DNA from: an uncultured Acidobacteriaceae bacterium
Lineage (GTDB): Bacteria; Acidobacteriota; Terriglobia; Terriglobales; Acidobacteriaceae
Direction of reading: 5' to 3'
DNA: 64,000 nt
Assembly (NCBI GenBank): GCA_963773955.1
Contig: CAVZDM010000026.1
Span: 6,750 to 70,749, forward strand
Shown here: positions 5,336 through 44,726 of the stretch, piece by piece
Layout of the letters: every line of letters starts with the position of its first letter
Position numbering within the stretch: the first letter of the stretch is position 1
The notes under the pieces: model-generated
The model's database searches: none
What the model saw: only the letters and a program-made list of their open reading frames with translations
What the model was told of the DNA's origin: nothing
Program-made: the position numbers and the translations under genes

Positions 5336-5653
5336 ATGACCGACAAAAGGCTCGTGCTTACCACTTGCGGTTCGCTCGAAGAAGCCCGGAGCATCGCTCA
5401 TACGCTGGTTGAGCGGCAACTGGCGGCCTGCGTCAACATTGTTCCCCATATTGAATCCGTTTTTCGCTGGCAGGGGGAGATCGAGACGGCGGCCGAGTGG
5501 CTGCTGGTAATCAAGACGACGCTGGACGCCTTCGATCGCGTGCGCGAGGCTTTGCGTGAGCTGCATTCCTACGAACTTCCGGAGTGCATCGAGATTGGCA
5601 TCGAAGATGGGAGCGCGGCTTATTTGGAGTGGATTGGAGAGTCGGTGCGCTGA
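5336..5653 (+). CDS. cutA: Divalent-cation tolerance protein CutA
   Basis: 105 aa. LAACVNI...S.F.WQGEI...EWLLVIKT...HSYELPE is the typical CutA1 pattern. Confidence 0.85.
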   Translation: MTDKRLVLTTCGSLEEARSIAHTLVERQLAACVNIVPHIESVFRWQGEIETAAEWLLVIKTTLDAFDRVREALRELHSYELPECIEIGIEDGSAAYLEWIGESVR

Positions 5654-5703
5654 ACGCGACTGGTTCGCACATCTCTATATCCTTTACTGAAAGGTGACGC
5701 GTA

Positions 5704-5913
5704 ATGGGAATAAGAGAGCCCCTGACACTTAAGCAAAAGGTGTTGTGCGTCGCCTTGATATTTTTTCTGAATACACCTGTGCTTATCTTCATATTTGGCT
5801 ATTCCGACCGATTTTCTCCCAGACAGGTGGGCTTAGTCGGCCTGCTGAATCTCGCCCTGGGAGTCCCCTTGCTCGCACTGATAACGGAAAAATGGATCCG
5901 CAAACTGAAATGA
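5704..5913 (+). CDS. Small two-TM membrane protein, hypothetical
   Basis: 69 aa with two hydrophobic segments. Lower-GC stretch; no family recognised. Confidence 0.35.
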   Translation: MGIREPLTLKQKVLCVALIFFLNTPVLIFIFGYSDRFSPRQVGLVGLLNLALGVPLLALITEKWIRKLK

Positions 5914-5928
5914 AGAAAAACGAAGAGG

Positions 5929-7083
5929 TTAGATCGCAGTCAGCGCCTGGTCGAGGTCGGCGAGAATATCGTCCACGTCTTCGATGCCGACCGATATCCG
6001 CACCAATCCGTCGGTGATGCCGATCTTGCGGCGACCCTCTTCGCCGACAGCCGCGTGCGTCATGGTGGCGGGATGCGAAATCAGCGTCTCAACTCCGCCC
6101 AGCGACTCGGCCAGTGAACACACGCGCACCTTGCGCAGCATCTTGTTGGCGTTCGCGAGCGATCCGGTTTCGAAAGAGATCATCGCTCCGAAACCGGACA
6201 TCTGCCGCTTGGCCAGTTCGTGCTGCGGATGATCCGCCAGTCCGGGATAAAAAACCTTCTGCACCTTTTTGTGTTTCGAGAGATAGTCGGCGACTTTGCG
6301 CCCGCTGCGGTCATGCTGTTCCATGCGAACGGCCAGAGTCTTCACCCCGCGCAGGATCAGCCAGCACTCAAACGGTGACAGGATGGCACCGGCGCATTTC
6401 TGAAGAAAAGCAAGTTTTTCCGCCTGCTCCGGTTTGGTGCAGACTACGACACCTCCCAGCCCGTCGCTGTGTCCGTTGAGAAATTTCGTGGTGGAGTGAA
6501 TCACCATGTCGGCGCCGAACTCAATCGGACGCTGAAAATACGGCGACATGAAAGTGTTGTCGACGACCACCTCGGCACCGTGCCGGTGGCTGACTTCGCT
6601 AAGGGCGCGGAGGTCGCACAGTTGCATCAGCGGGTTGGTCGGCGTCTCCAGGAACACGAACCGTGTGTTCTTCTGGAGCGCGCGTTCAACCTTGTTGACG
6701 TCCGATGTATCGACGTAGGTGAATGTAAGACCAAAGTTGACCAGGACCTGATCGAACAGGCGCGGCGTCCCGCCGTAGAGATTGTGGCCGGCGACGACGT
6801 GGTCGCCCGCTTTGAGCATGGTAGCGACGGCGTTGACGGCCGCCATTCCACTGGCAAAAACACGCGACGCCGTTCCCCCTTCGAGCGCCGCCAGGTTCGT
6901 TTCCAGCCGGTCGCGCGTCGGATTCGATACGCGCGCGTATTCATAACCTTTATTCTTGCCGATTTCTTCCTGAACGTATGTGGAGGTCGGATAGATGGGC
7001 GCGGCGACTGCGCCGGTAAGGGGGTCGGGCTCTTGTCCGACGTGAATGGCTCGGGTTGCGAAACCGGATGGTTGAGTGGTCAA
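5929..7083 (-). CDS. Cystathionine gamma-lyase/gamma-synthase (Cys/Met-metabolism PLP-dependent family)
   Basis: N-terminal ATRAIHVGQ, PLP-lysine region HSTTKFLNGHSD, C-terminal SLGGVETLISHPATMTH. Confidence 0.9.
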   Translation of the reverse strand: MTTQPSGFATRAIHVGQEPDPLTGAVAAPIYPTSTYVQEEIGKNKGYEYARVSNPTRDRLETNLAALEGGTASRVFASGMAAVNAVATMLKAGDHVVAGHNLYGGTPRLFDQVLVNFGLTFTYVDTSDVNKVERALQKNTRFVFLETPTNPLMQLCDLRALSEVSHRHGAEVVVDNTFMSPYFQRPIEFGADMVIHSTTKFLNGHSDGLGGVVVCTKPEQAEKLAFLQKCAGAILSPFECWLILRGVKTLAVRMEQHDRSGRKVADYLSKHKKVQKVFYPGLADHPQHELAKRQMSGFGAMISFETGSLANANKMLRKVRVCSLAESLGGVETLISHPATMTHAAVGEEGRRKIGITDGLVRISVGIEDVDDILADLDQALTAI

Positions 7084-8187: not shown

Positions 8188-8769
8188 CTAGCTCGTCTTG
8201 CCGGAACGCCCCGCGGCCTCGACGGTCGTAGTAGGATCGGCACCTTGCCACTTCACGTCGGCCGTCGGCCCGTAGGTCGCAGGCACCGGTTTTCCCAGCA
8301 AACGCAAGTAGACGGTCAGCTGCGTGCGGTGATGCGCGGTATGCAAGACGCGCCTCCAGAAGATCCAGATCCGTTCGCGGCGGGTATCAAAGAAAGGGAC
8401 AACCGTCCGCCACCACTCTTCATCGCGCTCCGCCATGAATTCAAGTCGCGGCTGTGCAAGGTCGAGCATCCGCGCGTTGAAGCTCTTGACCACGAGCTGC
8501 TGCGGCAAGACGTGATCCGCCGCGACTTCCGGCAAGCCGAGAAACTCGGCAAAGAATCGCCGCTCCGACAGCAGTTGGTGCTTCATGATGTCCGCGACCG
8601 AACTGGAGTTCGGATGCGGGCGGTAGCCAAGATCAGAATCAACGAAGGTCGCCCAGACCGAAATGACTTTGTTGGTCTCGCTGGCATAGGTATCGAGGAC
8701 GTGTTGCAGGAGGGCAACCCGAGAGCGCGGAACTTGCTCTTCGCGAATTGCCGAGAACGGATATTTCAT
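8188..8769 (-). CDS. DinB-family (four-helix-bundle) protein
   Basis: 193 aa. His-containing helices (HPNSS...IMKHQ, HTAHHRTQLTVYLR) resemble DinB/YfiT-like proteins. Assignment is by motif recall only. Confidence 0.5.
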   Translation of the reverse strand: MKYPFSAIREEQVPRSRVALLQHVLDTYASETNKVISVWATFVDSDLGYRPHPNSSSVADIMKHQLLSERRFFAEFLGLPEVAADHVLPQQLVVKSFNARMLDLAQPRLEFMAERDEEWWRTVVPFFDTRRERIWIFWRRVLHTAHHRTQLTVYLRLLGKPVPATYGPTADVKWQGADPTTTVEAAGRSGKTS

Positions 8770-8788: not shown

Positions 8789-9871
8789 TTACTGCGCTCC
8801 CGAAGCGGGCTCGGGTCCGGCGTAATATCCGCTTTTCGTACGGACGGTGAGTTTGCTACGGCTGTGCGAACGGGCATCCACTTTCACTTGACGATAGCCG
8901 CCTTGGGTTTTGGGCGTCGTCGGTTTGTATCCGATCGTGTACTGGCTGCGAATATCGTGGGCCACACTGCGGCTGATGGCGTCAACTTCGTCAAGTGTTT
9001 GGGGAAAGAACGCGATGCCGCCGGTTCTCTCCGACATCAGTTGGAGGGCGCGTCTGGCGTGCTTCGGATGTTCGTCCTTCTCCAGGATGCCGATGGCGTA
9101 AACCGTGGGTCCGCCATCGCCTTGCAAGCGCTCCACCGCTTTCTCGAGAGTTTCGCCGCTCTCATTGTCGTCTCCGTCGGTAACCACAAGAATGACTTTC
9201 TTTTCGCGCTTCGCTTCTTTTTTCAATTTTTCGGCGGAGGCTACGACCGCATCGTAAAGCGCGGTGCCGCCGCGCGCCTCGATTTTTTCCAGCCCCTCTT
9301 TCAGCTTATTGATATTGGAAGTGAAATCCTGATCGAGATAGAACTCGTCGTTGAAGTTTACGATGAACACCTCATCGTTGGGATTCGACGCGCGCACCAG
9401 ATTCAGGGCCGCCGCGTTCACCTTTTGGCGCTTCTCTCGCATGGAACCGGAGTTATCGACGACGATGCCCATGGACACCGGAATGTCTTCATGGCGGAAG
9501 GAAGTGATGGTTTGGGGATGCCCATCCTCGAAGACGCTGAAATCACCCTTGTCGAGGCTGGTGACGATGCGCTGCTTGTCGTCGACCACCGTGGCGTGCA
9601 GCACAACTTCTTCCACTTCCTTGCGGAAAACAAATACGCCGCTGTCAGAATCCGGACTCTGGGCAGAGCTCGGGGAAACGTTCGGAGAGACGTTCGGGGA
9701 AACGTTCGGAGCCGTATTCGGAGTTGCGCCTTGTCCGGCGGAAACTGACGGAGGCGTGGCGCTGGGCGGCGCCGGCTGGGCCGAGGTTCCCTCTTGCGCT
9801 TTTACGCTGGCCAGGAACAGCGTCGTCAGAAGAAAGAAAACCAGTAGCGGAACATTATTCCGTCGGCGCAT
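8789..9871 (-). CDS. Secreted VWA-domain protein (acidobacterial VWFA-related type)
   Basis: Signal peptide, low-complexity (PNVS)n linker, beta-sandwich module (VFVFRKEVEEVVLHATVVD...FSVFEDG), and MIDAS motif VVDNSGSM. Confidence 0.85.
   Translation of the reverse strand: MRRRNNVPLLVFFLLTTLFLASVKAQEGTSAQPAPPSATPPSVSAGQGATPNTAPNVSPNVSPNVSPSSAQSPDSDSGVFVFRKEVEEVVLHATVVDDKQRIVTSLDKGDFSVFEDGHPQTITSFRHEDIPVSMGIVVDNSGSMREKRQKVNAAALNLVRASNPNDEVFIVNFNDEFYLDQDFTSNINKLKEGLEKIEARGGTALYDAVVASAEKLKKEAKREKKVILVVTDGDDNESGETLEKAVERLQGDGGPTVYAIGILEKDEHPKHARRALQLMSERTGGIAFFPQTLDEVDAISRSVAHDIRSQYTIGYKPTTPKTQGGYRQVKVDARSHSRSKLTVRTKSGYYAGPEPASGAQ
9674..9721. repeat. 12-bp tandem repeat (3 good units plus 1 degenerate) encoding PNVSPNVSPNVSP
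   Basis: GGAAACGTTCGG / AGAGACGTTCGG / GGAAACGTTCGG / AGCCGTATTCGG, read directly from the sequence. Confidence 0.85.
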
Positions 9872-11127: not shown

Positions 11128-12454
11128 ATGGCCATTGTTTCCCCATTCCGAGCTTGGCGCTACGACCCTCAGCGCGTGCCGGTTCAACAGGTTGTGACCC
11201 AGCCCTACGACAAAATCACCCCCGCCATGCAGGAGCGGTACTACCAGGCCAGTCCTTATAATCTGGTGCGGATTATTCTCGGCAAACGCCTGCCAGATGA
11301 TGGGGATACCGAGAACGTCTACACGCGGGCGGCGGCGTCCTTCCAGAACTGGCGCGAAACCGGCGTTTTGCGGCGCGACCCAGAGCCTTCGATCTACCGC
11401 TATTCGCAGACATTCAAGGTTCCGGGAAACACTCCGGGAAGTCAGGTGCAGGCCGAGCGCCGGGGCTTTATCGCCCTCGGGCGGATCGAGGAATATTCCG
11501 CGGGCGTCGTGTTCCGGCATGAGCAAACGCTGGCCAAGCCGAAAGCCGACCGCTTGCACCTGCTGCGCGCGAATCGAGCCCACTTTGGTCAACTGTTCAT
11601 GCTCTACAGCGGGGCGGGCAAGGTGGATGCCGTGCTCGATGCAGTGGCAGCTCCAGAATCTATCTCCCGAAATCGAGGTCACCGACGAGTGCGACGTCGT
11701 TCACCGCGTCTGGAAGATCTCCGACCCCTCGGTCATTGCCACCGTGCAACAGCATATGCGGGATCGCAAGCTGATCATCGCCGACGGCCATCATCGCTAC
11801 GAAACCGCTCTGACCTATCGCGACCAGCGCCGAGCCGAAGCCGAGACTGGGTCGGGCCTTCCCACTGCTTACGACTCGGTGATGATGACCTTCGTCGATA
11901 TGAGCCGTCCCGGCCTGGTGATTCTGCCGACGCACCGGCTCGTGTTCGGCCTGCCGTCTTTTTCGGCTGCGCAATTTCAGGCGGAGGCGCAGAAGTTCTT
12001 CAACGTGGAAGAGGTCGATCCGGGAGTCGATGCGGCGCGCGCCACTGCGATTCTGCAGCAGGCAGGGCATGCAGGAACGGCATTGCTCGCGGTCACCGCC
12101 GACCGTGCATTTCTGCTGCATTCCCCGAAGGCGATTGGCACCAGCTTGTTCGGAAAGCTTTCTTTGCGCCAGCAAGCTCTGGACGTCGTGCAATTGCACA
12201 AGTGCCTGCTGGAAGGCGCTCTGAAGATCTCGGAGGACGCCATCCGCAATCAGGAGAACGTTTCGTATTGTCGAGAAGCCGCTGAAGCGTTGATGCAGGT
12301 GCGCAGCGGAAAGGCCCGGGCGGCATTCCTGATGAATGCGGTGCGCACGGAGCAGGTTCGCGATATCGCCTTTGCCGGCGAAGTGCTGCCCCAGAAGTCC
12401 ACCGATTTCTACCCAAAGCTGCTGAGCGGGCTCACGATTTATGCGCTGGACTAG
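11128..12454 (+). pseudogene. DUF1015-family protein, interrupted by a +1 frameshift near 11664-11668
   Basis: The N-terminal part (MAIVSPFRAWRYDP...LFMLYSGAGKVDAVLDAVAAPE) is in frame 1. The remainder (PEIEVTDECDVVHRVWKISDP...IIADGHHRYETAL...STDFYPKLLSGL) is in frame 2. The switch maps to the CTCCC run. Confidence 0.75.
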
Positions 12455-12461
12455 CAAGCGG

Positions 12462-12523
12462 CAGTTCGCAGTTCTCAGTTCTCAGTTTCCAGTACCACAC
12501 TTCCTACTGAGAACTGCGAACTG
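12462..12523. repeat. REP-like hairpin with an 18-bp perfect stem
   Basis: CAGTTCGCAGTTCTCAGT (12462-12479) pairs with ACTGAGAACTGCGAACTG (12506-12523). It is followed by further CTGRGAAC units up to about 12548. Confidence 0.85.
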
Positions 12524-12578
12524 GGAACTGAGAACCAAACTGAGAACCAGGATTCTGGCCATCCTGTTGGCCGTGATC

Positions 12579-14057
12579 ATGCTTCTATGCGCGCTGCCTT
12601 CTGCGCTGCCTTCTGCGGATGACAAGCGCATCTCCGTCTATTCTCCCGTCGCCATCTACTCACTCCCGGTTCTGGAGCGCGCGGGCCATGAGTATGTCGG
12701 CTTGCTCGAGCTTCTGGAGCCGCTGGGCCGCGTCAGCAGCCAGTCGGACAGACAGCGCTGGAAGCTGCGCTATAACACAGTGGATGCCGAGTTTGTGGCG
12801 GGAAAGACGCGGGCCGTGATTCGCGGCCACGATTTTGATCTGACGGCTCCCTTCGTTATCGAAAACTCGCGCGGACTGGTCCCCATAAGTTCGCTGGGCA
12901 CGCTGCTTCCGCGCTTCCTGGGAACGTCGGTGAATTTTCACGAAAGTGCGCGCCGCTTATTCGTCGGCGAGGTCGCCATACAAACCAGTTTCCGCCTGGA
13001 CGCGAACAACCCGCCGCGCCTGCTGCTGAGTTTCACCGCTCCCGTGAATCCGACTCTCTCCACCGAACCGGGCAAGCTGCGCATGGTGTTCAGGCGGGAC
13101 CCGGTCGTTTCCCCGGGAAGCGAATCGATTTCCTTTGACAACAGCGTCATCAAGCAAGCCACTTACTCCGAGGGCAACGGTGACGCCGAATTAGACGTCG
13201 CCGCAAACCAGCCACTGATGGCAAGCTTCAGCAACGACCGGAGGACGATCATCATTTCCGCTGTCCCGCAAACAGCTGCCGCGCCGAGTGTTGCCGGATC
13301 GCCGAGCAATGGATCGCAGAACAATGGGTCGCCGAATCCTGGGTCAGAAAATCCTGGACCGCTGAACAATGGATCGCCTAATAATGGTCCCGAAAATCCC
13401 GCGCAGGCCTCACCCGCTGCCGGCATCGCCGCCGGCAATAACGATGCTAATGCCAATCCCAACTTTCATCGCGTTCTCGCCGTGGTCGATCCCGCGCACG
13501 GCGGCGACGAACGGGGTGCGGCCTTGACCGATTCTCTGGTCGAGAAAGACGTCACCCTGGGATTTGCCCGCCTGCTGCGCCACGAACTGCAGATTCGAGG
13601 CTTCGCAGTTGTGATGCTGCGCGACGGTGATGGCACTCTAACTTTGGATCAGCGCGCCGCGGCCGCCAACGTTGCGCGCGCCGGAATCTACATCACCCTG
13701 CACGCCGATTCCGAGGGCAGCGGCGCGCGCGTCTTCACCGCGCTGCTTCCCGTGGAAGGACCGAGCAATGGAGTATTTCATCCCTGGAACGCGGCCCAGG
13801 CACAGGCCTTGCCCGTCAGCCGGATCGTGTCGGCCGCGATCCTGGTCGAGATGAAAAAGCGCGAATTCCCGGTAAGAGCATCTTCTGCCTCGTTGCGTCC
13901 GCTGAACAATGTCTCGATGCCTGCAGTCGCGGTGGAACTCGCTCCCGGAGCAGACGGCGTCGCCGACTTGACCTCGGCCAACTATCAACAACGAGCCGCG
14001 GCGGCCATTGCCGATGCCGTGGCTTCCGTCCGCGACCGCCTGATGGTGCAGCAATGA
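12579..14057 (+). CDS. N-acetylmuramoyl-L-alanine amidase (Amidase_3, AmiC-like); start uncertain
   Basis: Catalytic-domain motifs VVDPAHGGDERGA and ITLHADS, plus a low-complexity Gly/Ser/Asn/Pro linker. The first ~33 codons of the track ORF (from 12441) are the REP hairpin, so a downstream start is more likely (ATG 12579, or a non-ATG near 12540). Confidence 0.8.
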   Translation: MLLCALPSALPSADDKRISVYSPVAIYSLPVLERAGHEYVGLLELLEPLGRVSSQSDRQRWKLRYNTVDAEFVAGKTRAVIRGHDFDLTAPFVIENSRGLVPISSLGTLLPRFLGTSVNFHESARRLFVGEVAIQTSFRLDANNPPRLLLSFTAPVNPTLSTEPGKLRMVFRRDPVVSPGSESISFDNSVIKQATYSEGNGDAELDVAANQPLMASFSNDRRTIIISAVPQTAAAPSVAGSPSNGSQNNGSPNPGSENPGPLNNGSPNNGPENPAQASPAAGIAAGNNDANANPNFHRVLAVVDPAHGGDERGAALTDSLVEKDVTLGFARLLRHELQIRGFAVVMLRDGDGTLTLDQRAAAANVARAGIYITLHADSEGSGARVFTALLPVEGPSNGVFHPWNAAQAQALPVSRIVSAAILVEMKKREFPVRASSASLRPLNNVSMPAVAVELAPGADGVADLTSANYQQRAAAAIADAVASVRDRLMVQQ

Positions 14058-14067
14058 AGGTGCAACC

Positions 14068-14652
14068 ATGATCCCGCGCCATCTCCTGATCGGAGTAGCC
14101 GCGCTCTTGCTGCTGGTCGTGTCGATGGGAATCTACCTTCGCCACATGCGGCGACAGGCGCGGGAATTTGATTCGCTTGCCGCCGAAGAGTTCCCCGTCG
14201 CTCCTCCAGCCAACGGCCCCACGGAAACGGTTACCTTATATGTGGCGGACGACACCGCTGGCACGCTGCGAGCGCGCTCGGCAAAGATTCCTCTTCCTGG
14301 AGGACGCCAGCAGCGAGCCGAAGAGTTGTTGCGCGCGCTGCTGCGCATCTACCAGCAACCCGGCGCTCCACATCCGCTGGCTCCGGCCGCGGACATCCGC
14401 AGCATCTTCCTGGTCGATCCCGGAGCAGCCGTCATCGATCTGAATGCGGCCTTCGCCGACCTGCATCGCTCCGGCGTTCTCAGCGAGCAGCTCACCGTGA
14501 ATTCGCTAGTGGAGACGCTGGCTGTCAACGTTCCGGGGATTCAGCGGGTCAACATCCTGGTCGAAGGCAAGACTCGGGAGACGCTAGCCGGCCACGCAGA
14601 CCTGACCGAAACTTTCGATGTGACTGCGGTCGAGCAGGCGGGCAGTCAGTAA
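14068..14652 (+). CDS. GerMN-domain protein
   Basis: N-terminal TM anchor. VTLYVADD...LRALL...AVIDLN...QLTVNSLVETL...ILVEG matches the GerMN pattern. The position directly after an amidase is typical. Confidence 0.7.
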   Translation: MIPRHLLIGVAALLLLVVSMGIYLRHMRRQAREFDSLAAEEFPVAPPANGPTETVTLYVADDTAGTLRARSAKIPLPGGRQQRAEELLRALLRIYQQPGAPHPLAPAADIRSIFLVDPGAAVIDLNAAFADLHRSGVLSEQLTVNSLVETLAVNVPGIQRVNILVEGKTRETLAGHADLTETFDVTAVEQAGSQ

Positions 14653-14678
14653 GGCATTTCCGAGCTGAATCGGGGTTA

Positions 14679-14707
14679 CCCCCCACCCCCCCTACCCCCC
14701 ACCCCCC
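14679..14707. repeat. C-rich tract C6-A-C7-TA-C6-A-C6 (four G-runs on the minus strand)
   Basis: Read directly: CCCCCCACCCCCCCTACCCCCCACCCCCC, 27 nt after the GerMN-gene stop, at the left edge of the low-GC islet. Confidence 0.9.
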
Positions 14708-14770
14708 GACTAGGTCTATTAGAATTAACGGTTTAGCGGACTTGCCCCCGGCAAAGTATTCAAAAATAAT

Positions 14771-14943
14771 GACTTATATGCAAAGTATTCAGGAATATGG
14801 AGTTAGGTTGTCAAACCTCTCAGCATTCCCACTCATCGCGCAGAAATTTTTAATATCTCTGTCCTTTAGAATCATTGGTTTAGGAGGAAATTACCGCCAA
14901 ATCTTTGAGTTTTAAGGACTTATATGCAAAATATTCCGGAATA
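14771..14943. repeat. Two 27-bp direct repeats in an AT-rich non-coding stretch
   Basis: GACTTATATGCAAAGTATTCAGGAATA (14771-14797) and GACTTATATGCAAAATATTCCGGAATA (14917-14943) match at 25 of 27 positions. Partial extra copies: GCAAAGTATTCA at 14751 and AAGGACTTAT at 14943. Confidence 0.85.
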
Positions 14944-14978
14944 AGGACTTATCGCGTTTGAAGCCTCCAAAAATGGTT

Positions 14979-15030
14979 TTGGGGCAGCTTCGAGGGCCGT
15001 CTTTGTGGACGGACTTCGAAACTGCCCCAA
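14979..15030. other. Long imperfect hairpin upstream of the toxin-antitoxin pair
   Basis: TTGGGGCAGCTTCGA (14979-14993) pairs with TCGAAACTGCCCCAA (15016-15030) with 1 mismatch. There is an inner CCGTC/GACGG stem. Confidence 0.6.
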
Positions 15031-15141
15031 TCAGACTTTTATTGTCGCGCGAGGATGGGGCTAAAGTCAATGAAATTCGTTAGGTTTGGTTGGTCGCTAA
15101 GTCGTTGCGCTTTGCTTAGAAGGCCACTTAGAATAAAAGGC

Positions 15142-15366
15142 ATGGAAGTCTCATTTGCGCCGGAGCTCGAAGCCAGGCTAAACCGGATCGCCTCGCAGGC
15201 GGGTAAAGCGCCGGACGAGGTCGTGCGCGAGTTCGTTGCGAGCTGCCTTGACCACGACGAATGGTTCAAGCAAGAGGTTGGCAAGGGCCTCGCTTCGCTC
15301 GATCAGGGCAAGAGCGTCTCCCACGAAGACGTGCGCCGCCAGATGGACCGAATCCTCGGTTCCTGA
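15142..15366 (+). CDS. Type II antitoxin (ribbon-helix-helix/ParD-like) paired with a ParE/RelE toxin
   Basis: 75 aa. The N-terminal MEVSFAPELEARLNRIASQAGKAPDEVVREFV is RHH-like. It ends 11 nt before the toxin start. Confidence 0.7.
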   Translation: MEVSFAPELEARLNRIASQAGKAPDEVVREFVASCLDHDEWFKQEVGKGLASLDQGKSVSHEDVRRQMDRILGS

Positions 15367-15377
15367 TTGGGTTCCTG

Positions 15378-15653
15378 ATGAAGATCGAGTGGTCGCCTGA
15401 AGCCGCGGCCGACTTTGCGGGAATAGTCGCGTACATCCACGAGCAGAATCCTTCCGCTGCTAATCGCGTTGCGCATACCATGTTCGATTCTGCAGCTTCG
15501 CTCGATTCATTTCCCAATCGTGGGAGGCCGGGCAGGGTTGGTGGTACTCGCGAACTCGTCTTAACGCCGCTACCATTCATCGTCGTCTATCGAGTCAAAC
15601 GGAACGTTGTAGAAATCGCGAGAGTGCTACACGGATCACAGCGCTGGCCGTAG
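15378..15653 (+). CDS. ParE/RelE-family type II toxin
   Basis: 91 aa. W.PEAAADF..IV.YI...NP.AA.RV...SFPNRGRPGRV.GTRELV...PFIVVYRV....V.I.RVLHG is the classic ParE pattern. Confidence 0.85.
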   Translation: MKIEWSPEAAADFAGIVAYIHEQNPSAANRVAHTMFDSAASLDSFPNRGRPGRVGGTRELVLTPLPFIVVYRVKRNVVEIARVLHGSQRWP

Positions 15654-15696
15654 ACTTCGGAAGTGGACACGCGCGGCATCCCACGTCTCGAAGTTC

Positions 15697-16623
15697 TCAG
15701 CAGCGTCCTATGATAATATCGTTCGCGCTTACGAAGATTTTTCGCCGTTGCGCCGCGATCTCCTTCTTCCGAAAGAGCAGTTCGGGGAGATCGATTCTGC
15801 CGTCCAGAACGAGCATCACATCGCCGCCATCCGCACAAATCATCCTTGGGCGGTTGCCTTCGATGTAACCCGATATAGCGTCTTCAGTGAACCCAGAAAC
15901 AGCCAAGAAAAGGCCGAGTGTATTGTCGAGGCTTGAGCTAACGGCGCCGTCAAGATCGCGAAGCTCCCCGAGGTTAGACTTCGGCTTTTGCCACTTCGCC
16001 TCTAGTAGGAAGTTGTCCCGATCCAGTACGAAGGCCCCATCTATTTGCTCTCCCCGGCGCTTAAACGGGGAGTGTGGCGCAAGCTCAAAAAGCGCGAAGA
16101 GTTCGTTGAGGAGTTTCTCCAAGTCGTAACCACGTTCATGTTCATCGTTTTTGACTAAGAGTTTCAGGTACCGCTCTCTTAGACTGCCGAGTTTCTCCTG
16201 AAAGATTCTTCCCTTCTGCGCTTCTTCAATCCTGCGGCGCCGGGCATCGCGTTCCTCCTTCTCCGTAGCCTTTGCGGAGTCATGTTCGTCCGCAAGGCTG
16301 CGAAGATGTTCGAGTGCGCGTTCCGCCTCTTTCTTGAGCTTTTTTCCGTCGTTATATCGGAGCAGGTGGTCACAGTTCTTGTATCGGAGAGTTTCCCGCA
16401 AAATGAGCCTGAGCGCCCCTAGGCCTTCTTCGCTTGTGTTAAGCGTGTCAACGATTGGCGACAGGATGTGAAATTTGTACTGATTCCAATCCTGCGAATT
16501 GATTATTTTCTGATCGACGCCTGCGATGTTAAGCATCGTGCGCATTTGTGGGCGAGTCCAGAACACCTTAACAACCGCCTCCTTAAGCGCAGTTACAATA
16601 TCGTGGCTAAAGTGCCCTGCCAT
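15697..16623 (-). CDS. Restriction-endonuclease-domain (Mrr-like PD-(D/E)xK) protein with an unknown N-terminal domain and central coiled coil
   Basis: The C-terminal GYDLEKLLNELFALF...GEQIDGAFVLDRDNFLLEAKWQ...LFLAVSGFT fits the Mrr_cat-type D...E-x-K core. The central segment is highly charged (EKEERDARRRRIEEAQKGR). ATG 16623 (MAGHFSHD) was chosen; the track start 16851 would overlap the divergent gene. Visibly lower GC. Confidence 0.7.
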   Translation of the reverse strand: MAGHFSHDIVTALKEAVVKVFWTRPQMRTMLNIAGVDQKIINSQDWNQYKFHILSPIVDTLNTSEEGLGALRLILRETLRYKNCDHLLRYNDGKKLKKEAERALEHLRSLADEHDSAKATEKEERDARRRRIEEAQKGRIFQEKLGSLRERYLKLLVKNDEHERGYDLEKLLNELFALFELAPHSPFKRRGEQIDGAFVLDRDNFLLEAKWQKPKSNLGELRDLDGAVSSSLDNTLGLFLAVSGFTEDAISGYIEGNRPRMICADGGDVMLVLDGRIDLPELLFRKKEIAAQRRKIFVSANDIIIGRC

Positions 16624-16776
16624 AACTAACAATGATTGTCGCACGTCGGCCCCACAATACGAAGGCCGTATCTCTTGGACTAGGCTGGGCCCGCTCGGAG
16701 TAAGATGTCTGGACGGCCGCAGTAATGTCTGGAGGCGTCGACGACGGGAACTAACGAGCGACGCGGGAGGATTTAC
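16624..16776. promoter_or_regulatory. Divergent intergenic control region with a direct repeat
   Basis: 153 bp between the head-to-head starts. AGTAAGATGTCTGGA (16699-16713) and AGTAATGTCTGGA (16721-16733). AACTAAC occurs near both ends. GGGAGGA lies 7 nt before ATG 16777. Confidence 0.4.
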
Positions 16777-17637
16777 ATGTCGCCTAGGCAACGCAAGAAG
16801 ACCAAGGCAAGGGCGAAGACAGTTGCCCCTGGCAAGGGACCGCAAGTTCACAAAGACATATGCTTCATTATTTGCCCTTTCGGTGGGTGGAATGACAGCT
16901 ATTGCGAGGAGATCTTCGGCCCGGCGGTTGAGTCGGCGGGTCTCGAACCAAAGAGAGCGGACGACCTATACCGCCCAAGCGCGATAGTCCATGATATCTG
17001 GGATTACGTGAAAAAATCCCGGGTGATGCTAGCGGAGCTGACGGGCAAGAACCCAAACGTTTTGTATGAACTCGGACTTGCCCATGCGACCGGCAAGCCC
17101 GTCATCATGGTTAGCCAATCGATGGACGACGTCCCCTTCGACCTGCGGTCGTTGCGGGTCATTATCTATGACGTGGAAAACCCCGACTGGAGTGCGATTC
17201 TCAGGAGCAGCGTAAAACAGGCGCTGCAGGAAGTGCTGAGTTCACCCGAGCTCGCCGTCCCGCCTGCGTTCTTGCATGTGCGCAAGGGAGGGAAACAGCC
17301 GTCAGTTAGCCCGATCAAGCGAAAGCTCCTAGAGCTTGAACAGCAGGTTGACCGGCTGCGATCTCAGGTTCGGAGTCCGTACGAGACCCGCATTCGCACC
17401 GAAGCTGAGGCGGAGGCGCGCCTTCGAAACTATCTTAGCCAGGGTATGCCGGCCGAGCTCGTGGTCAGGAAGCTGGTTGGCTCTGGGGTTCCGGCTGTCT
17501 GGGCCGAGAAGCGCCTCGAGGACTTTGGTCTTCGAAGGGTACGCGAACCGAAGAAGATCGAACAGCCTCAAGGAGGGCAACCTGCAATGCCCCAACCGGC
17601 CGAGGTTAAACCGCCCGAGGAAAAGAAGGCCACCTAA
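16777..17637 (+). CDS. Protein with an N-terminal nucleoside-2-deoxyribosyltransferase/TIR-like Rossmannoid domain, coiled coil and a Pro/Lys-rich tail
   Basis: CFIICPFGG...SRVMLAELTGKNPNVLYELGLAHATGKPVIMV...PFDLRSLRVIIY resembles the NDT-fold pattern (beta1, then D/N-x-x-x-x-x-E-x-G-x-A-x-x-x-G-K-P-V). The C-terminus has KRKLLELEQQVDRLRSQV. Assignment is by motif recall only. Confidence 0.6.
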   Translation: MSPRQRKKTKARAKTVAPGKGPQVHKDICFIICPFGGWNDSYCEEIFGPAVESAGLEPKRADDLYRPSAIVHDIWDYVKKSRVMLAELTGKNPNVLYELGLAHATGKPVIMVSQSMDDVPFDLRSLRVIIYDVENPDWSAILRSSVKQALQEVLSSPELAVPPAFLHVRKGGKQPSVSPIKRKLLELEQQVDRLRSQVRSPYETRIRTEAEAEARLRNYLSQGMPAELVVRKLVGSGVPAVWAEKRLEDFGLRRVREPKKIEQPQGGQPAMPQPAEVKPPEEKKAT

Positions 17638-17808
17638 TTACCCGGCGTGTCGGGCGCTGCGGCTTCAGCCCGAAGATATATCTCGAAGGACTTCTCCTAA
17701 GAAGACTTGTGGCGGGATCATCTCGACCTCCTGAATTCTCGACCTGTTCAGCACGCCGCGAGCCGGGGCATGGGGAGAACTCTCTGCTGCGTCCTTGCTG
17801 GACGAGAA

Positions 17809-17820
17809 GGGTGGGGGGGG
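17809..17820. repeat. G-rich tract G3-T-G8 at the right edge of the islet
   Basis: GGGTGGGGGGGG read directly. It is in inverted orientation relative to the C-tract at 14679-14707. Confidence 0.8.
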
Positions 17821-17931
17821 CCTTCGACTCCGCCGGGGCTTCACTTCGTGAAGTCCCTGCTCCGCTCAGGATGCCACTGAATGAGGTTGGCTGGGTGCCC
17901 CGGTTTCCCGCCGGCTGTTAGAATTCCGTCG

Positions 17932-18669
17932 ATGATCTTTCGCAGCGATAACCGCACTCCCGAGCAGGTTCGTCCCGTTAACATCGTTCCCGACTTCATC
18001 TCCACCGCGGAGGGATCGGCGCTGATTGAGATGGGCAACACGCGCGTCATCTGCACCGCTTCGGTTGAGGAGACGGTGCCTCCGTTCCTGCGCAATTCGG
18101 GCAAGGGATGGATTTCCGGCGAATACGGGATGCTGCCGCGCTCGACGCTGACGCGCACCGCGCGAGAATCCGCTAAGGGAAAACAAAGCGGACGCACGCA
18201 GGAAATTCAGCGCCTCATCGGACGCTCGCTGCGCGCGGTGGCGGATTTGAAGCGGCTGGGTGAACGCACCATCTGGATCGATTGCGACGTGATCCAAGCG
18301 GACGGAGGCACGCGAACGGCATCGATCACTGGAGCATTCGTCGCGCTGGGCCTGGCTTTGCAACGGCTGATCGATGCGGGAACGTTGAGTTCCGCGCCGA
18401 TTAAGGATTTTGTGGCCGCCATCAGCGTCGGCATCGTGGACGGCGAAGTTCTTCTCGATCTTAATTACGAAGAAGACTCGCGCGCCGATGTGGACATGAA
18501 CTTCGTCATGACCGCGGGCAATAAAATCGTCGAATTGCAGGCCACCGCCGAGCACCAGGTGTTCGACGACGCTCAACTGGCAAAGATGATGGCGATGGCG
18601 CGCCAGGGCATCCAGTCGCTGATCGCGAAGCAGCAGACTGTGCTGGGAACGCTGGCGCTGCGGCAGTAG
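17932..18669 (+). CDS. rph: Ribonuclease PH
   Basis: R.D.R...[54 protein letters not shown]: full-length RNase PH from ATG 17932. Confidence 0.95.
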
Positions 18670-18707
18670 GAGCCTTGTGAAGGTCGGGCGCTGCATCCTC
18701 TAACAGT

Positions 18708-18780
18708 TGTCATCCTGAGCGAAGCGAAGGACCTGCTGTTCGCCGCAAGAAGCAGGTCCTTCGCTTCGCTCAGGATGACA
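18708..18780. repeat. REP-like palindrome with a 30-bp perfect inverted repeat
   Basis: TGTCATCCTGAGCGAAGCGAAGGACCTGCT (18708-18737) pairs with AGCAGGTCCTTCGCTTCGCTCAGGATGACA (18751-18780). Confidence 0.9.
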
Positions 18781-18877
18781 AAGGTTGGCCGGATGACAAA
18801 GTCTGGTGAATGCTTACGTTCTTGGCAGCGGCTGTGGTTTAGAATTATGGGTTGCTATTGCACTCATAGGAGGATTT

Positions 18878-19885
18878 ATGAAACTTACCCCCGGCAAACT
18901 CGCCGGAATGAAGGCTGTATCCAATGAACGCGGCGTAATCGCCGCTGCCGCCATGGACCAGCGCGGCTCACTGCAGAAGTCTCTCGCCAAGGAAAAGGGC
19001 TCGGCGGTTTCTGACGCGATGATGGAGGAGTTCAAGATTCTGGTGAGCGAGGTGCTGACGCCACATGCCAGCGCCATCCTGCTCGATCCGGAATGGGGAC
19101 TACCCGCTTCGAAGCGGCGCGCCAAGAACGCTGGTCTGCTACTCGCTTATGAAAAGACCGGCTACGACAAGACGGGACCGGGGCGGCTGGGCGATCTGCT
19201 CGATCATTGGTCGGCGCGCCGGCTGAAGGAAGCGGGCGCGGATTGCGTCAAGATTCTGCTTTACTACACGCCGTTTGATCCGAAAGACATTAACGACAAG
19301 AAGCACGCCTGGGTCGAGCGGCTGGGCGATGAGTGCCGCGCCAATGACATTCCGTTCTTTTTGGAGTTTGTCACTTACGAGGAAGGCGTGGACGAGAAGG
19401 GCTTCGACTTCGCTAAGAAGAAACCGAAAGCGGTCATCGAAAGCATGCGCGAATTCACTAAAGACCGCTATGGCGTCGACGTAATGAAGGTCGAAGTCCC
19501 GATCAACATGAAGTTTGTGGAAGGGACCAAATCGTACAAAGGTGAAAAGGCCTACTCGAAACAGGAAGCGATTAGATTCTTCCATGAGGCAGCGGCGGTC
19601 TCGACCAAGCCGTTCATCTATTTGTCGGCGGGCGTCAGCAATTCCGAGTTCACCGAGTCGCTGGAGCTGGCAGCCGAGTCGGGGGTGAAATTCAACGGCG
19701 TGCTCTGCGGACGCGCCACCTGGAAAGAAGGCATCCCCGTCTACGCGAAACACGGGGCGAATGCGTTCCGGAAGTGGCTGGAAGATGAAGGCGTGAAGAA
19801 CATCAATAACGTGAACGATCGCCTGAAGGCCGCAACTTCGTGGCACTCGATCTACGGAGTGGAGCCGGCGCTGGCGCACGTGTAG
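18878..19885 (+). CDS. Tagatose-1,6-bisphosphate aldolase-like (class I, LacD family)
   Basis: MKLTPGKLAGMK..S.ERGVIAAAAMDQRGSL, LLDPEWG, ILLYY.P, FFLEFVTY: LacD-family pattern from ATG 18878. Confidence 0.75.
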   Translation: MKLTPGKLAGMKAVSNERGVIAAAAMDQRGSLQKSLAKEKGSAVSDAMMEEFKILVSEVLTPHASAILLDPEWGLPASKRRAKNAGLLLAYEKTGYDKTGPGRLGDLLDHWSARRLKEAGADCVKILLYYTPFDPKDINDKKHAWVERLGDECRANDIPFFLEFVTYEEGVDEKGFDFAKKKPKAVIESMREFTKDRYGVDVMKVEVPINMKFVEGTKSYKGEKAYSKQEAIRFFHEAAAVSTKPFIYLSAGVSNSEFTESLELAAESGVKFNGVLCGRATWKEGIPVYAKHGANAFRKWLEDEGVKNINNVNDRLKAATSWHSIYGVEPALAHV

Positions 19886-19917
19886 ATAAAGACCAGTAGC
19901 AGCGGGATGTCTTCTAT

Positions 19918-19998
19918 TGTCATCCTGAGTGAAGCGAAGGACCTGTGCATTTTTGAGCAGCCTGGAACAGCAGGTCCTTCGCTTCGCTCAGGATGACA
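19918..19998. repeat. Second copy of the GTCATCCTGAG-type REP palindrome
   Basis: TGTCATCCTGAGTGAAGCGAAGGACCTG (19918-19945) pairs with CAGGTCCTTCGCTTCGCTCAGGATGACA (19971-19998) with 1 mismatch. Same orientation as the copy at 18708. Confidence 0.9.
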
Positions 19999-20027
19999 GT
20001 TCATTTGTGCCCGATTTGCAGAACACT

Positions 20028-33716: not shown

Positions 33717-33953
33717 TTACAGAGTTCCGGCAGCTTTGCCGGCTGCCTTGATTTTCCTTTTGCCCTGCGATTCCGTTTCCATCGACTTCTCTTCCATCCA
33801 CTGATCCAGCTTCGATTTTTTGAAGCGCCAGCGATTGCCCAACTTGAACGCCGGAATCTTTTGTTCGTTCACGTACTTGTACAGCGTGTCCGGACTCACT
33901 CCCAGATACTGCGAAGCTTGGCGAATGTTCATTACTTCTCGCGAGTCGGCCAT
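33717..33953 (-). CDS. Excisionase/MerR-type helix-turn-helix DNA-binding protein
   Basis: MNIRQASQYLGVSPDTLYKYVNEQKIPAFKLGNRWRFKKSKLDQWM is the HTH_17-type pattern. It ends 29 nt upstream of the pilM start. Confidence 0.7.
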   Translation of the reverse strand: MADSREVMNIRQASQYLGVSPDTLYKYVNEQKIPAFKLGNRWRFKKSKLDQWMEEKSMETESQGKRKIKAAGKAAGTL

Positions 33954-34482
33954 AACCCTTTCCCTCTCCCACCGAATCCCACCCTCAGCCTCGCCTTTTG
34001 TTTCCGGCTACGCTGAGGAAATTGGGAGAACCAAGGCCTCGATTCAAACGCGTTCGAGTGTATTTTGGTGTGCTGAGCATATCCCAACCGGAAGAGAGGG
34101 CCTCTCCAAGTGAATCTCACGGTTTTGTTGGGTTTTATGGGGGTTTTCTGGATTTCACAAAAAGTGGACTTGCAGTACTTGTCTACATATTGTGCCTATC
34201 GTCTCATGGATAGCTACAGGTAGTAGCTTGTGCGCAGGTACAGCACAGGTCACCCGAATTGCGGTAACTAAGGTACTAGAGACGGTACGGAAGTACTGGC
34301 ACGGGCGCGCAAAGCGCTGAAAATACGGCAACTCACTTCCCAGCTTTAACGAAAAAATCGCTGTGATTCTGGTTTCGCTCCGCGCTCGATTTCCGAGCAT
34401 TGCGGCGTGCTCCGATCACCCGCACTGCGTGAGCCTCGTCACTTTTTGTTTGAAAAGATTTCTGTAGGCTGATCTGTCTTCA

Positions 34483-34508
34483 AATCGCAAAGTCTGAATC
34501 GCAAAGTC
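34483..34508. promoter_or_regulatory. Tandem 12-bp direct repeat just upstream of the RBS
   Basis: AATCGCAAAGTC (34483-34494), TG, AATCGCAAAGTC (34497-34508), then AAAGTAAGGAGCACTC-ATG (34525). Confidence 0.45.
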
Positions 34509-34524
34509 AAAGTAAGGAGCACTC

Positions 34525-35715
34525 ATGAAACTACTGGTAATCGGTTCCGGCATGATGGGTTCAGCGGCTGCCTATGATATGGCGCGCCAGGAACACGTCG
34601 ACTCCGTCACTCTCGCCGACAGCGACCTCAAGCGCGCCAAAGAGGTAGCGGCGCGCGTCAACCGCATCACCGCCGGCAAGAAAGTCCGCGCCGTCGGGCT
34701 CGACGCTTCCAAAGAAAAAGAAGCCGCTCGCCTTATGAAAGGCCACGATGGCGCGCTTTCCGCGGTTCCTTACCGTCTGAACTTCGGCCTGGCAAAAGCC
34801 GCCATCGGCGCGGGATGCCATTTCGCCGATCTCGGGGGCAACAACACCGCGGTGCGGCAGGAGTTGGCGCTAGGCAAACAAGCTGAAAAACGCGGCATTG
34901 GCATCGCTCCCGATTGCGGTCTCTCTCCCGGCATGGCATCGATTCTGGGTGGCGAACTGGTTCGCCGCCTCGACGGACGCGCCGACGCGCTCAGGCTCTA
35001 CGTCGGAGGCCTGCCTGAGAAACCCATGCCTCCATTTCACTATCAGCTGGTGTTTTCCGTCGAAGGATTGATTAACGAATACGTCGAACCAGCGCGCATC
35101 CTGCGCAAAGGCAAACTGATCACCATCGATCCGCTCACCGAACCTGAACCGTTCCATATGGACGGTTTCGCGCCGCTGGTGGCCTTTCAAACTTCCGGCG
35201 GAACTTCCACCTTGCCCGAGACCTTCGAGGGAAGAGTGGGTGAGTGCTTTGAGAAAACTCTGCGCTATCCCGGCCATTACGATCTGCTCTGCGAACTGAA
35301 GGACCTGGGATTGTTTTCGAACGAGAAAATGCGGGTTGGCAGCGTGGAAGTTTCGCCGCGCGCGCTTTTGTCAAAAGTGTTTGAAGGGAAATTTGCCGGC
35401 AAGGGGCCGGACGTCTGCATCATGCGCATTGAAGCGCACGAGTCGGTCAAAGCTCCTGGAGTCCGCGGCTTGCTCGGCGGAAAACTCAAAGGCCGGGTCG
35501 CCAGCTTCACCATGGTTGACCACTACGATCCCAAGAGCGACATGAGCGCCATGATGCGGACGACCGCCTTCCCGGCGTCCATCGTCCTGCAGATGATGTG
35601 TTCGGGCGCGATCAGCAAGCATGGAGCAGTTTTGCAGGAACGGGATGTCCCCGCGGAAACCTTCCTTGAAGAAATCGAGCGGCGGGGGATCGGGATTGAG
35701 TATCGGATGGAGTAG
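34525..35715 (+). CDS. Saccharopine dehydrogenase-family NAD(P)-binding oxidoreductase
   Basis: N-terminal Rossmann motif MKLLVIGSGMMGSAAAYD. Length and C-terminal domain fit the Sacchrp_dh family. Confidence 0.8.
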   Translation: MKLLVIGSGMMGSAAAYDMARQEHVDSVTLADSDLKRAKEVAARVNRITAGKKVRAVGLDASKEKEAARLMKGHDGALSAVPYRLNFGLAKAAIGAGCHFADLGGNNTAVRQELALGKQAEKRGIGIAPDCGLSPGMASILGGELVRRLDGRADALRLYVGGLPEKPMPPFHYQLVFSVEGLINEYVEPARILRKGKLITIDPLTEPEPFHMDGFAPLVAFQTSGGTSTLPETFEGRVGECFEKTLRYPGHYDLLCELKDLGLFSNEKMRVGSVEVSPRALLSKVFEGKFAGKGPDVCIMRIEAHESVKAPGVRGLLGGKLKGRVASFTMVDHYDPKSDMSAMMRTTAFPASIVLQMMCSGAISKHGAVLQERDVPAETFLEEIERRGIGIEYRME

Positions 35716-40063: not shown

Positions 40064-40291
40064 GGTGGTTTACCGATATTCGCTTGAGCGCCGTCACGCA
40101 ACAAAGGTTGGCTACTTGACCACTCAAGGCGGCGCAACTAGTTTATCGATGCTGCCCGGCCCGCAAATTATGACGGCCGGGTCGTTTCACATCATCAGGG
40201 TGATTTACGAAAAGCTGCCGGCGGTTCATACGCGACATGCGTGTGAAGCACCGGCTTCCTGCTTTATAATAGATTTGAGGATTTAAGATTT

Positions 40292-40465
40292 ATGGCTGAG
40301 AAAAAAGCGAAAACCGCCGAAAAAAATCCCGGCGAAATCCAGCACAAACACCTCTGCCCCGAATGTGGTGGCGACAGCAAGGTGACCAAGTTCGCCGGCT
40401 TCGGACGCAAAGGCTTCTACATCGTGTGCGAGAAGAACGCCAGTCACGTTGGCCGGCTCCGCTAA
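40292..40465 (+). CDS. Small (57 aa) zinc-ribbon-like protein, not in the ORF track
   Basis: My own translation is MAEKKAKTAEKNPGEIQHKHLCPECGGDSKVTKFAGFGRKGFYIVCEKNASHVGRLR. It has a CPEC pair and downstream C/H residues. The track only lists the antisense ORF 40283..40480. Confidence 0.4.
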   Translation: MAEKKAKTAEKNPGEIQHKHLCPECGGDSKVTKFAGFGRKGFYIVCEKNASHVGRLR

Positions 40466-44695: not shown

Positions 44696-44726
44696 TGCGC
44701 AAGGAAAACGCGAAGAGATATCACCG

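Follow-up and report, generated by a model that had tools for sequence, protein, structure and literature searches.

How did a group of conflict-type genes come to lie between two conserved housekeeping genes of an uncultured Acidobacteriaceae bacterium, and do these genes belong together? The stretch of DNA that we analysed (64 kb of contig CAVZDM010000026.1, hereafter the window) carries four genes between a gene encoding a GerMN-domain (Germane) protein and rph, the gene of RNase PH. These four genes encode a RelB-like antitoxin, a ParE/RelE-family toxin, a PD-(D/E)xK nuclease and a protein related to nucleoside 2-deoxyribosyltransferases (NDT), DNPH1 and TIR domains, hereafter the NDT-like protein. 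A first-pass annotation had described positions 14653-17931 as a low-GC accessory islet with the layout of a small defence islet. Our comparison with related genomes and with homologues elsewhere makes it fairly probable that the islet is a patchwork of independently mobile modules, namely two copies of a dispersed repeat, a toxin-antitoxin (TA) operon, a solitary nuclease gene and a solitary NDT/TIR-related gene, gathered at a hypervariable junction rather than forming one system. The part of this reading that concerns an islet at a hotspot is much more certain than the part that concerns function.

A lineage-specific insertion between GerMN and rph

The window was compared with 80 rph loci, taken with 10-kb flanks from Acidobacteriaceae and other Terriglobales-type metagenome-assembled genomes (one genome per species), across which rph is 65-97% identical. 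Searched by tblastn with the window proteins, most of the 80 loci keep the amidase-GerMN-rph synteny, and in not one of them does an islet protein have a homologue. In the 59 loci with GerMN and rph in collinear order, the gap between the two genes ranges from 44 bp to 9.7 kb; 30 of these gaps are shorter than 600 bp, including ten bare spacers of 44-67 bp. Five relatives (L006, L009, L011, L012 and L018; fetched loci are designated by L numbers) proved collinear with the window over ~20 kb when aligned as DNA, their GerMN genes being 84-89% identical in nucleotide sequence to that of the window; for rph, the identity with relatives is 88-92%. The alignments with these five syntenic relatives end at 14651-14655, i.e. 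at the GerMN stop codon (14652), and homology resumes at 17904-17932 or, in L009, at 17766. Since the homologue of 17766-17931 directly follows the GerMN stop codon in L009, the insert proper extends from about 14653 to 17765 (~3.1 kb). The borders first drawn at 14653 and 17931 were essentially right, and the claim of an accessory islet wedged between housekeeping genes is borne out by empty sites in relatives, by the absence of its genes from all 80 loci and by a synteny that breaks at gene boundaries. The alignment of relatives proposed as a check for an empty site yielded the ten spacers of 44-67 bp, and the relatives do not carry the four genes. Segment 14653-17765 is a real, lineage-specific insertion with defined boundaries.

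The flanking genes, first described as encoding an amidase, a GerMN protein and RNase PH, were confirmed by Pfam: an Amidase_3 gene at 12441-14057 in the upstream flank, the GerMN gene at 14068-14652 on the plus strand (PF10646, 5e-13), which forms the conserved left flank, and rph at 17932-18669 on the plus strand (PF01138 and PF03725), which forms the conserved right flank. The rph start, ATGATCTTTCGCAGCGAT, is kept in relatives, and the true start is at 17932; a conserved TTAGAAT lies directly before it at 17918-17924. Segment 17766-17931, matched by L009 and five other loci, is older intergenic DNA 5' of rph that is common to some relatives, and the spacer that forms the right end of the insert (17638-17765) is specific to the window, matching none of the fetched loci.

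The drop in composition noticed at first sight was supported by sliding-window statistics. The islet (14653-17931) has a GC content of 0.549, compared with a mean of 0.588 (standard deviation 0.0165) for windows of equal size, only 0.66% of which are as low, and with a mean of 58.9% for the whole 64 kb. It combines the lowest GC with the largest tetranucleotide deviation of the window, the distance from the window average reaching its maximum there with a z of ~3. The non-coding part (14653-15141) has a GC of 0.454 and contains the lowest 400-bp windows of the 64 kb. The genes themselves deviate modestly: GC is 0.618 for the antitoxin, 0.558 for ParE, 0.533 for the nuclease (the 53% makes the original 'close to half A+T' roughly right) and 0.578 for the NDT-like protein, next to 0.631 for GerMN and 0.606 for rph, and z-scores for GC at third codon positions (GC3) are -2.3 for ParE, -1.7 for the nuclease, -0.5 for the NDT-like gene and +1.1 for the antitoxin. 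Because GC3 is clearly deviant only in ParE and the nuclease, the GC dip stems mostly from the non-coding DNA and from two of the four genes. In its deviant composition and its absence from relatives that present an empty site, the islet resembles a genomic island in the classical sense; the integrase, tRNA target or flanking direct repeats of such an island were not found.

The GerMN-rph junction is a general variable hotspot and is not dedicated to defence. Gap genes in relatives are unrelated to those of the islet and mostly metabolic or regulatory, with insertion sequence (IS) elements in addition: they encode DUF1579, outer-membrane beta-barrel, HEAT-repeat and Ig-like proteins, PadR regulators, dehydrogenases and MacB/FtsX transporters, and, among mobile-type functions, transposases of the IS1595 and IS200-like Y1 types, a serine recombinase and a reverse transcriptase. 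The 'filled' gap of six distant relatives contains no more than an Asp/Glu racemase gene. PADLOC found no defence system among 85 gap open reading frames (ORFs) from relatives and matched only the reverse transcriptase; these scans, together with those by Pfam, rule out a defence-dedicated hotspot, and the window is unusual among its relatives in having conflict-type genes at this site. In one of these gaps (L018 9097-10005), an IS200-like Y1 transposase ORF (9360-9719) lies between 87-nt inverted repeats that are 86% complementary, a layout that resembles a tyrosine transposase associated with repetitive extragenic palindromes (REP) and flanked by repeats like REP doublets forming hairpins (REPIN-like). 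The next junction, between rph and a DeoC/LacD-type aldolase gene, measures 136 bp in the window (18670-18805) and 2.5-7 kb in many relatives (L009, L014, L016, L017, L019, L024, L027 and others), and looks like a second variable hotspot immediately downstream.

Variable hotspots flanked by core genes have been described in Pseudomonas aeruginosa as 'core defense hotspots' (PMC10250203), and the repertoire of defence islands has been described in Escherichia coli (PMC10121019). The GerMN-rph site is like such hotspots in its fixed intergenic position between conserved housekeeping genes, in that related genomes hold different cargo or none, and in that many occupants lack an integrase of their own. 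It is unlike them in that the cargo of relatives is not enriched in defence genes and in that our comparison is between species (~84-92% nucleotide identity), whereas theirs is within a species pangenome.

A dispersed non-coding repeat

The AT-rich stretch downstream of GerMN is no plain spacer: it consists of two tandem copies of a dispersed repeat, and these copies cause the AT-rich dip, copy 2 being the main cause of the GC minimum. A 58-nt direct repeat with a separation of 146 bp gave the first sign of the element. On the plus strand at 14677-14707 a C-rich tract, in which the repeat search (family D6) detected TACCCCCCACCCCCC twice in tandem, is the poly-C left part of the repeat, as it aligns with the poly-C segment of other copies. 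Copy 1 (14695-14816, plus strand; nhmmer E = 1e-15) is partial, covering profile positions 69-184, and has its core, GACTTATATGCAAAGTATTC, at 14771-14790. Copy 2 (14857 to about 15100, plus strand; nhmmer E = 6e-56) covers profile positions 79-299 and beyond, includes an imperfect conserved hairpin at 14979-15030 (inverted repeat I1, with 23-nt arms that are 87% complementary) and ends ~40 nt 5' of the antitoxin start. Alignment of full copies, including those from metagenomes, gave a unit of ~330-400 bp (~350 bp, with a 359-nt consensus) made up of a poly-C or poly-T segment, the core GGTCTTTTGGAATCATGGGGTTAGG...AAGGACTTA-N5-AAAATATTCCGGAATAAGGACTTAG, an imperfect hairpin and a tail ending TGTGATGAAAAAAG.

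The repeat also occurs in L006, L012, L016, L018, L032 and L038, and its core is found in exact form at least 120 times in metagenome contigs from soil and peat but not in IMG/VR. In L012 and L018 the start of the repeat lies 7 nt past the stop codon of GerMN; the repeat is split in L012 by a 2.8-kb IS1595 insertion (L012 4488-7303), and is inverted and adjoins rph in L006. L012 and L018 are sister genomes that inherited their copy vertically; the window and L006 are also sisters, yet the orientation of their repeats differs, and the comparison of these two pairs indicates at least 2-3 independent arrivals of the repeat at the hotspot. The copy of L032 lies inside the rph-aldolase gap. Insertions of the IS1595 family (ISXO2-like) were observed at varying positions in or beside the repeat in L012, L145, L156 and L158, with ends resembling ATTATT(C/T)ACTTGAC, and IS1595 may have a preference for the repeat or for its AT-rich sequence. 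In a metagenome contig (L121 1403-2514), a RelB/DinJ-like ORF and a homologue of ParE that shares 48% identity with the window toxin come after the repeat and lie on its strand; with two cases, this contig and the window, the repeat-then-TA order may be due to chance. Copies in L165, L109 and L125 carry an inserted CTTCGCTTCGCTCAGGAT-type unit similar to positions 19852-20004 of the window, where short overlapping ORFs, HPERSEGP...FASLRMT (minus) and ...RFAQDDS... (plus), look like a small GC-rich intergenic repeat found in many bacteria.

Several known classes of element were considered for the repeat and rejected. Rfam scans of the AT-rich stretch, with gathering thresholds and by E-value, returned nothing relevant, and a structured RNA is disfavoured by RNAalifold analyses of the left half, of the whole right half and of a 24-sequence hairpin alignment, in which covariation was slight or absent: although conserved, the hairpin has a covariation term of +0.15 and an outer stem that barely varies, and the left half reaches -1.5 kcal/mol. 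A protein-coding function is at odds with inter-copy indels that are not multiples of three and with short ORFs that are not conserved. The ends of the 359-nt consensus offer no 10-of-12 inverted match and no target duplication was seen, contrary to a miniature inverted-repeat transposable element. An IS end can be discarded because the IS1595 copies are insertions into the repeat at differing positions and not its source. A role as outward promoter or 5' leader is not reflected in the downstream genes, which show no orientation bias (37 minus vs 24 plus); a TTGAG-N16/17-TAAAAT motif visible in the repeat is a candidate for a promoter role. The integron/attC interpretation was dismissed on mixed gene orientation and on an inspection by eye that found no R''/R' core sites around the hairpin. 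No gene family recurs among the neighbours of the copies. Judged from its sequence, the element is best called a dispersed intergenic repeat of Terriglobia, as yet unclassified, that is enriched in accessory DNA and often hit by IS1595.

The genes of the islet

Profile searches agreed with the gene content first proposed, a ParE/RelE toxin with its antitoxin, a PD-(D/E)xK protein and an NDT/TIR-like protein. The antitoxin gene (15142-15366, plus strand; 74 aa) matches the RelB-like model NF048017 of NCBIfam at E = 5e-7, below its cut-off, and its ORF ends 11 nt 5' of the start of the toxin gene (15378-15653, plus strand; 91 aa), the product of which passes the cut-offs of ParE_toxin PF05016 (64.5 bits vs 23) and TIGR02385 (35.3 bits vs 27.9) and matches phrog_2455 at 5e-18. 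The two genes form a RelB-like/ParE-RelE operon, a predicted type II TA system. As in parDE and relBE, the antitoxin gene precedes the toxin gene (here with 11 nt between them) and the toxin scores above the Pfam and TIGR02385 cut-offs; the antitoxin is unlike typical members in that RelB models match it only below their cut-offs. The window toxin may act on either of the parDE/relBE targets, gyrase or ribosome-bound mRNA.

The nuclease gene lies on the minus strand at 15697-16623 and encodes a Mrr_cat-like PD-(D/E)xK protein of 308 aa, an assignment drawn from PF04471, the homologue alignment and an AlphaFold model. The 384-aa ORF reaching 16851 that had first been proposed is too long, as fixed by homologues, of which 2486 were found and most of the best 120 are ~308 aa in length. 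The score of the 384-aa ORF for Mrr_cat PF04471, 21.6 bits, is borderline (cut-off 21), and precomputed matches to this family exist in only some homologues. An alignment of 38 homologues from Acidobacteriota, Planctomycetota, Hydrogenedentes, Armatimonadota and others is conserved end to end, with D194, E207 and K209 (GEQIDGAF...LLEAKWQ) invariant. The AlphaFold model (predicted local distance difference test, pLDDT, 89) comprises an all-alpha N-terminal domain (1-90), a single ~64-residue helix and a C-terminal PD-(D/E)xK alpha/beta domain. Foldseek returned weak matches, all of them nuclease domains (MspJI, NucS/EndoMS, FokI, Cdn1 and Cap4), with a probability of 0.96-1.0 for those of MspJI, NucS and FokI albeit with weak E-values. 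As modelled, the C-terminal domain shows a catalytic-type D...(D/E)xK motif on an alpha/beta core. The protein is like Mrr and type IV restriction endonucleases and other PD-(D/E)xK defence nucleases in this C-terminal motif (D...ExK) and fold, and unlike them in its N-terminal all-alpha domain and 64-residue helix, for which no recognisable relative was found; it has no methyltransferase partner. No model of PADLOC, NCBIfam or PHROGs matches it, and tblastn gave no match in 50,697 phage records.

Homologues of the nuclease lie in varied surroundings. The closest one (93-94% identical as protein and 86% as DNA, the DNA match spanning the gene and 23 nt upstream) occupies an unrelated context, close to a degenerate integrase and an Imm_superinfect gene. 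Elsewhere, two integrases lie 2.5 kb from a homologue, PIN-type TA modules neighbour others, and a distant full-length homologue is located on a Delftia plasmid between AbiEii and QatABCD. A defence-like island of Gimesia holds a homologue together with an SNF2/NOV_C helicase, a second Mrr-type nuclease and DUF1156. In Gimesia maris and TARA contigs (L088-L090) the homologue lies 3 nt 3' of the gene for the 1145-aa SNF2/NOV_C helicase and is followed by a second Mrr_cat/NA-iREase1 protein and a DUF1156 protein; the nuclease family could here be part of a multi-gene system of Planctomycetota.

Divergent from the nuclease gene, across an intergenic region of 153 bp (16624-16776, read from sequence) that matches none of the fetched loci, lies the gene of the NDT-like protein (16777-17637, plus strand; 286 aa). 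The protein is composed of a basic N-terminal tail, a Rossmann-like domain (27-165), a helix (179-199), a small helical C-terminal domain and a disordered tail (model pLDDT 82). Its family, with homologues of ~250-300 aa in Acidobacteriota, Myxococcota, Leptospira, Bacteroidota and many metagenomes, is large: a profile search of 1.84 billion representatives gave 1711 50%-identity clusters at E<=1e-30 and 17040 at E<=1e-10. Invariant residues are Glu98, in a YELG motif (Y97-E98-L99-G100), and, among others, C29, F30, P34-G36, R60, D62, D63, D73, N92, N94, H103, D118, D122 and R124. Nuc_deoxyrib_tr PF05014 matches 35 of 36 family members (best E 4e-5), in each case below its threshold, the window protein scoring 20.6 bits vs 28.8; the PADLOC model PDLC00733 ('Effector, TIR') matches all 36, the window protein partially, over 68 residues, at 3e-9. 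Foldseek placed a cyanobacterial NDT first (5e-6), followed by MilB, DNPH1 and BcmB and then, behind these NDT-type enzymes, by the TIR domains of SPARTA (TIR-APAZ, 2e-4) and TIR-STING (4e-4), and none of the Pfam TIR families was significant in the family, one member reaching 0.069 with CAP12-PCTIR_TIR. In a profile search of solved structures, which retrieved DNPH1/Rcl, the Glu of YELG aligns with the catalytic-region motif of DNPH1. The model thus presents an NDT fold with a conserved Glu at a catalytic-type position after the fourth strand.

Relatives of the NDT-like protein are borne by phages and plasmids. It matches phrog_3634 at 2e-27 and has a full-length viral structural match at 4e-11; homologues are present in Streptococcus and Staphylococcus phage genomes, 80 plasmid records match, and a distant homologue of phage Javan37 lies between repressor and cro in a Streptococcus prophage lysogeny module. 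The closest homologue, 72-74% identical, is in another place again. One homologue (L218) is divergent from Shedu SduA and another (L004) lies between GIY-YIG and PDDEXK_5 nucleases. Two immune effectors offer a comparison: the NDT-like effector of retron Ec86 (Eco1), which depletes adenine derivatives (bioRxiv 10.1101/2023.08.16.553469), and the DUF4062 TIR-like NADase Swarozyc, in which catalytic E97 is accompanied by a helical stalk and a sensor domain (bioRxiv 10.64898/2026.05.01.722283). The likeness is one of architecture and fold only: a Rossmann-like N-ribosyl-hydrolase fold with a conserved Glu, followed by a helix and a small C-terminal domain as in single-protein sensor-effectors. 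The N-glycosidases DNPH1 and MilB are metabolic relatives of the same fold. Membership of the DUF4062/Swarozyc group is rejected, PF13271 (DUF4062) giving no match at E<=1 in any of the 36 family members, and so is that of an Ec86-type retron: unlike that system, the islet has no reverse transcriptase among its ORFs or non-coding RNA nearby, and Rfam finds nothing.

Entry, defence role and rival readings

The variability of the site and the independence of the modules are directly observed, and they are the basis on which we favour a patchwork. Acquisition probably took place by recombination through the conserved flanks, judging from the sequences compared: cargo would enter and turn over by homologous recombination through the conserved flanking genes, with no site-specific integrase, and IS elements and the dispersed repeat would add local rearrangements. 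In keeping with the earlier remark that the route of acquisition was unclear, we found no tRNA gene in the 64 kb that could have served as a target, no recombinase or transposase among the four islet genes and no flanking direct repeats at the islet, the only repeat at its boundaries being a weak inverted match of 72% (I2). A phage origin was rejected on the absence of the repeat core from IMG/VR and of the nuclease from the phage records. As for function, the TA pair would stabilise the patch or act in abortive infection, the nuclease would cut DNA under the control of its N-terminal domain, and the NDT-like protein, when triggered, would degrade NAD+ or a nucleotide as an N-glycosidase acting via Glu98, the latter two each as a stand-alone conflict effector. 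Certain observations weigh against this account. No recombination tract could be demonstrated at the islet, and the flanking genes of the closest genome compared share only ~84-92% identity with those of the window, so that timing and direction rest on cross-species parsimony and not on an empty site within the same species. GC3 is host-like in the genes of the antitoxin and of the NDT-like protein. Metabolic enzymes rank first among the structural matches to the latter protein, and three neighbourhoods of its homologues (about half of those sampled) look housekeeping. Finally, PADLOC-DB v2.0 recognised no known system in the islet, matching only the NDT-like protein, and that partially, and none of the other three.

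A defence role for the islet is plausible from neighbourhood and fold, the only grounds for the 'defence islet' claim; the PADLOC run that had been suggested as a check returned no complete known system and the single partial 'Effector, TIR' match, the modules are unpaired and the site is not enriched in defence genes. Homologues of the nuclease and of the NDT-like protein recur beside TA modules, other nucleases, Shedu or Qat systems, and the two are not partners elsewhere: 12 contexts of close homologues and one distant plasmid context gave no co-occurrence, which excludes an obligate pair. It is accordingly very unlikely that the divergent nuclease and NDT-like genes make up a new two-gene defence system in which one protein is a sensor/N-glycosidase and the other a nuclease effector. 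They do share a 153-bp divergent promoter region, and a nuclease gene adjoins the NDT-like gene or its homologue in 3 of 7 sampled contexts (the window, L218 with Shedu SduA, and L004 with GIY-YIG and PDDEXK_5); these neighbouring nucleases, however, belong to three unrelated families, and Shedu works alone. Moreover, seven other nuclease contexts (six close, one distant) lack an NDT-like gene, no other NDT-like context has this nuclease family, and the closest relatives of the two proteins differ greatly in identity (93% for the nuclease vs 74% for the NDT-like protein). That the islet genes are instead housekeeping or salvage genes that landed in a permissive site, with the NDT-like protein as a DNPH1/MilB-like sanitiser of odd nucleotides and the nuclease as a repair enzyme, appears unlikely. 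NDT, MilB, BcmB and DNPH1 are indeed the top structural matches, the search of solved structures leads to DNPH1/Rcl, several NDT-like homologues lie among metabolic genes, the cargo of relatives is mostly metabolic, and the nuclease has repair nucleases (NucS/EndoMS) among its weak fold matches. Against this stand the patchy distribution of the four proteins, none of which occurs in the 80 relatives, the NDT-like homologues in prophage lysogeny modules and on plasmids, the proximity of homologues to TA modules and to Shedu, Qat and AbiE genes, the match of all 36 NDT-like members to the PADLOC effector model, and an extra C-terminal domain and stalk helix typical of sensor-effectors, an architecture described in the Swarozyc preprint (10.64898/2026.05.01.722283).

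Two further readings involve the repeat. We regard it as highly improbable that the ~350-bp repeat is an active mobile or recombinogenic agent that landed at the junction and seeded the capture of cargo downstream of it. Its position immediately behind the stop codon of GerMN in the window, in L012 and in L018, and beside rph in inverted orientation in L006, its at least 2-3 independent arrivals according to the sister pairs, the location of 6 of the 8 copies of the window and the rph loci inside the variable gaps flanking rph, the IS1595 elements in or next to it in four loci and the copy of L121 that again precedes a RelB/ParE-type TA pair are all compatible with such a role; yet its consensus lacks terminal inverted repeats, no target duplication was seen, no recombinase accompanies it, no gene family recurs beside it, its neighbouring genes show no orientation bias (37 minus vs 24 plus) and 26 of the 29 filled gaps in relatives do without it. 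The repeat may just ride in with accessory DNA. Rather unlikely, finally, is the proposal that the NDT-like protein represents a new family of single-protein immune effectors, one that no database names, that the repeat represents a new kind of hotspot-associated DNA element, or both, as either could hold alone. The former would be in line with a protein in which an N-glycosidase domain containing Glu98 is joined by a stalk helix to a small sensor domain, analogous to Swarozyc but not its homologue at the Pfam level, and the latter with a repeat that is abundant in soil Terriglobia and lacks the hallmarks of MITE, REP or structured RNA. The patchwork of independent modules at a hypervariable junction remains the reading that we prefer.

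Elsewhere in the window, segment 8147-8789, which holds a minus-strand ORF (8188-8769), lies where homology with L006, L009, L011 and L018 (and with L012 where covered) is interrupted, between 8146 and 8790, and may be another small lineage-specific segment. Other local GC minima (400-bp windows of 0.49-0.51) lie at about 5550-6000, 33750-34550, 39950-40350 and 44400-44800, and tetranucleotide outliers were also found near 54.5-55 kb and 58.5-59.3 kb.

Nothing in these results overturns current ideas, and the locus is of an ordinary variable kind; the NDT-like family, the nuclease family and the undescribed repeat are leads worth following. Two widespread and unannotated gene families, both conserved over their full length, emerge from it: a Mrr-like nuclease with a novel N-terminal module and an NDT/TIR-related protein with phage-borne relatives. 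The dispersed repeat explains unusual AT-rich intergenic dips in these genomes and, being unannotated, could mislead predictors of islands and promoters. On either side of rph, the junctions with GerMN and with the aldolase gene are hotspots that probably permit recombination, in a soil phylum that is hard to culture and has been little studied, and they are useful for pangenome studies and for the mining of defence islands in Acidobacteriota.

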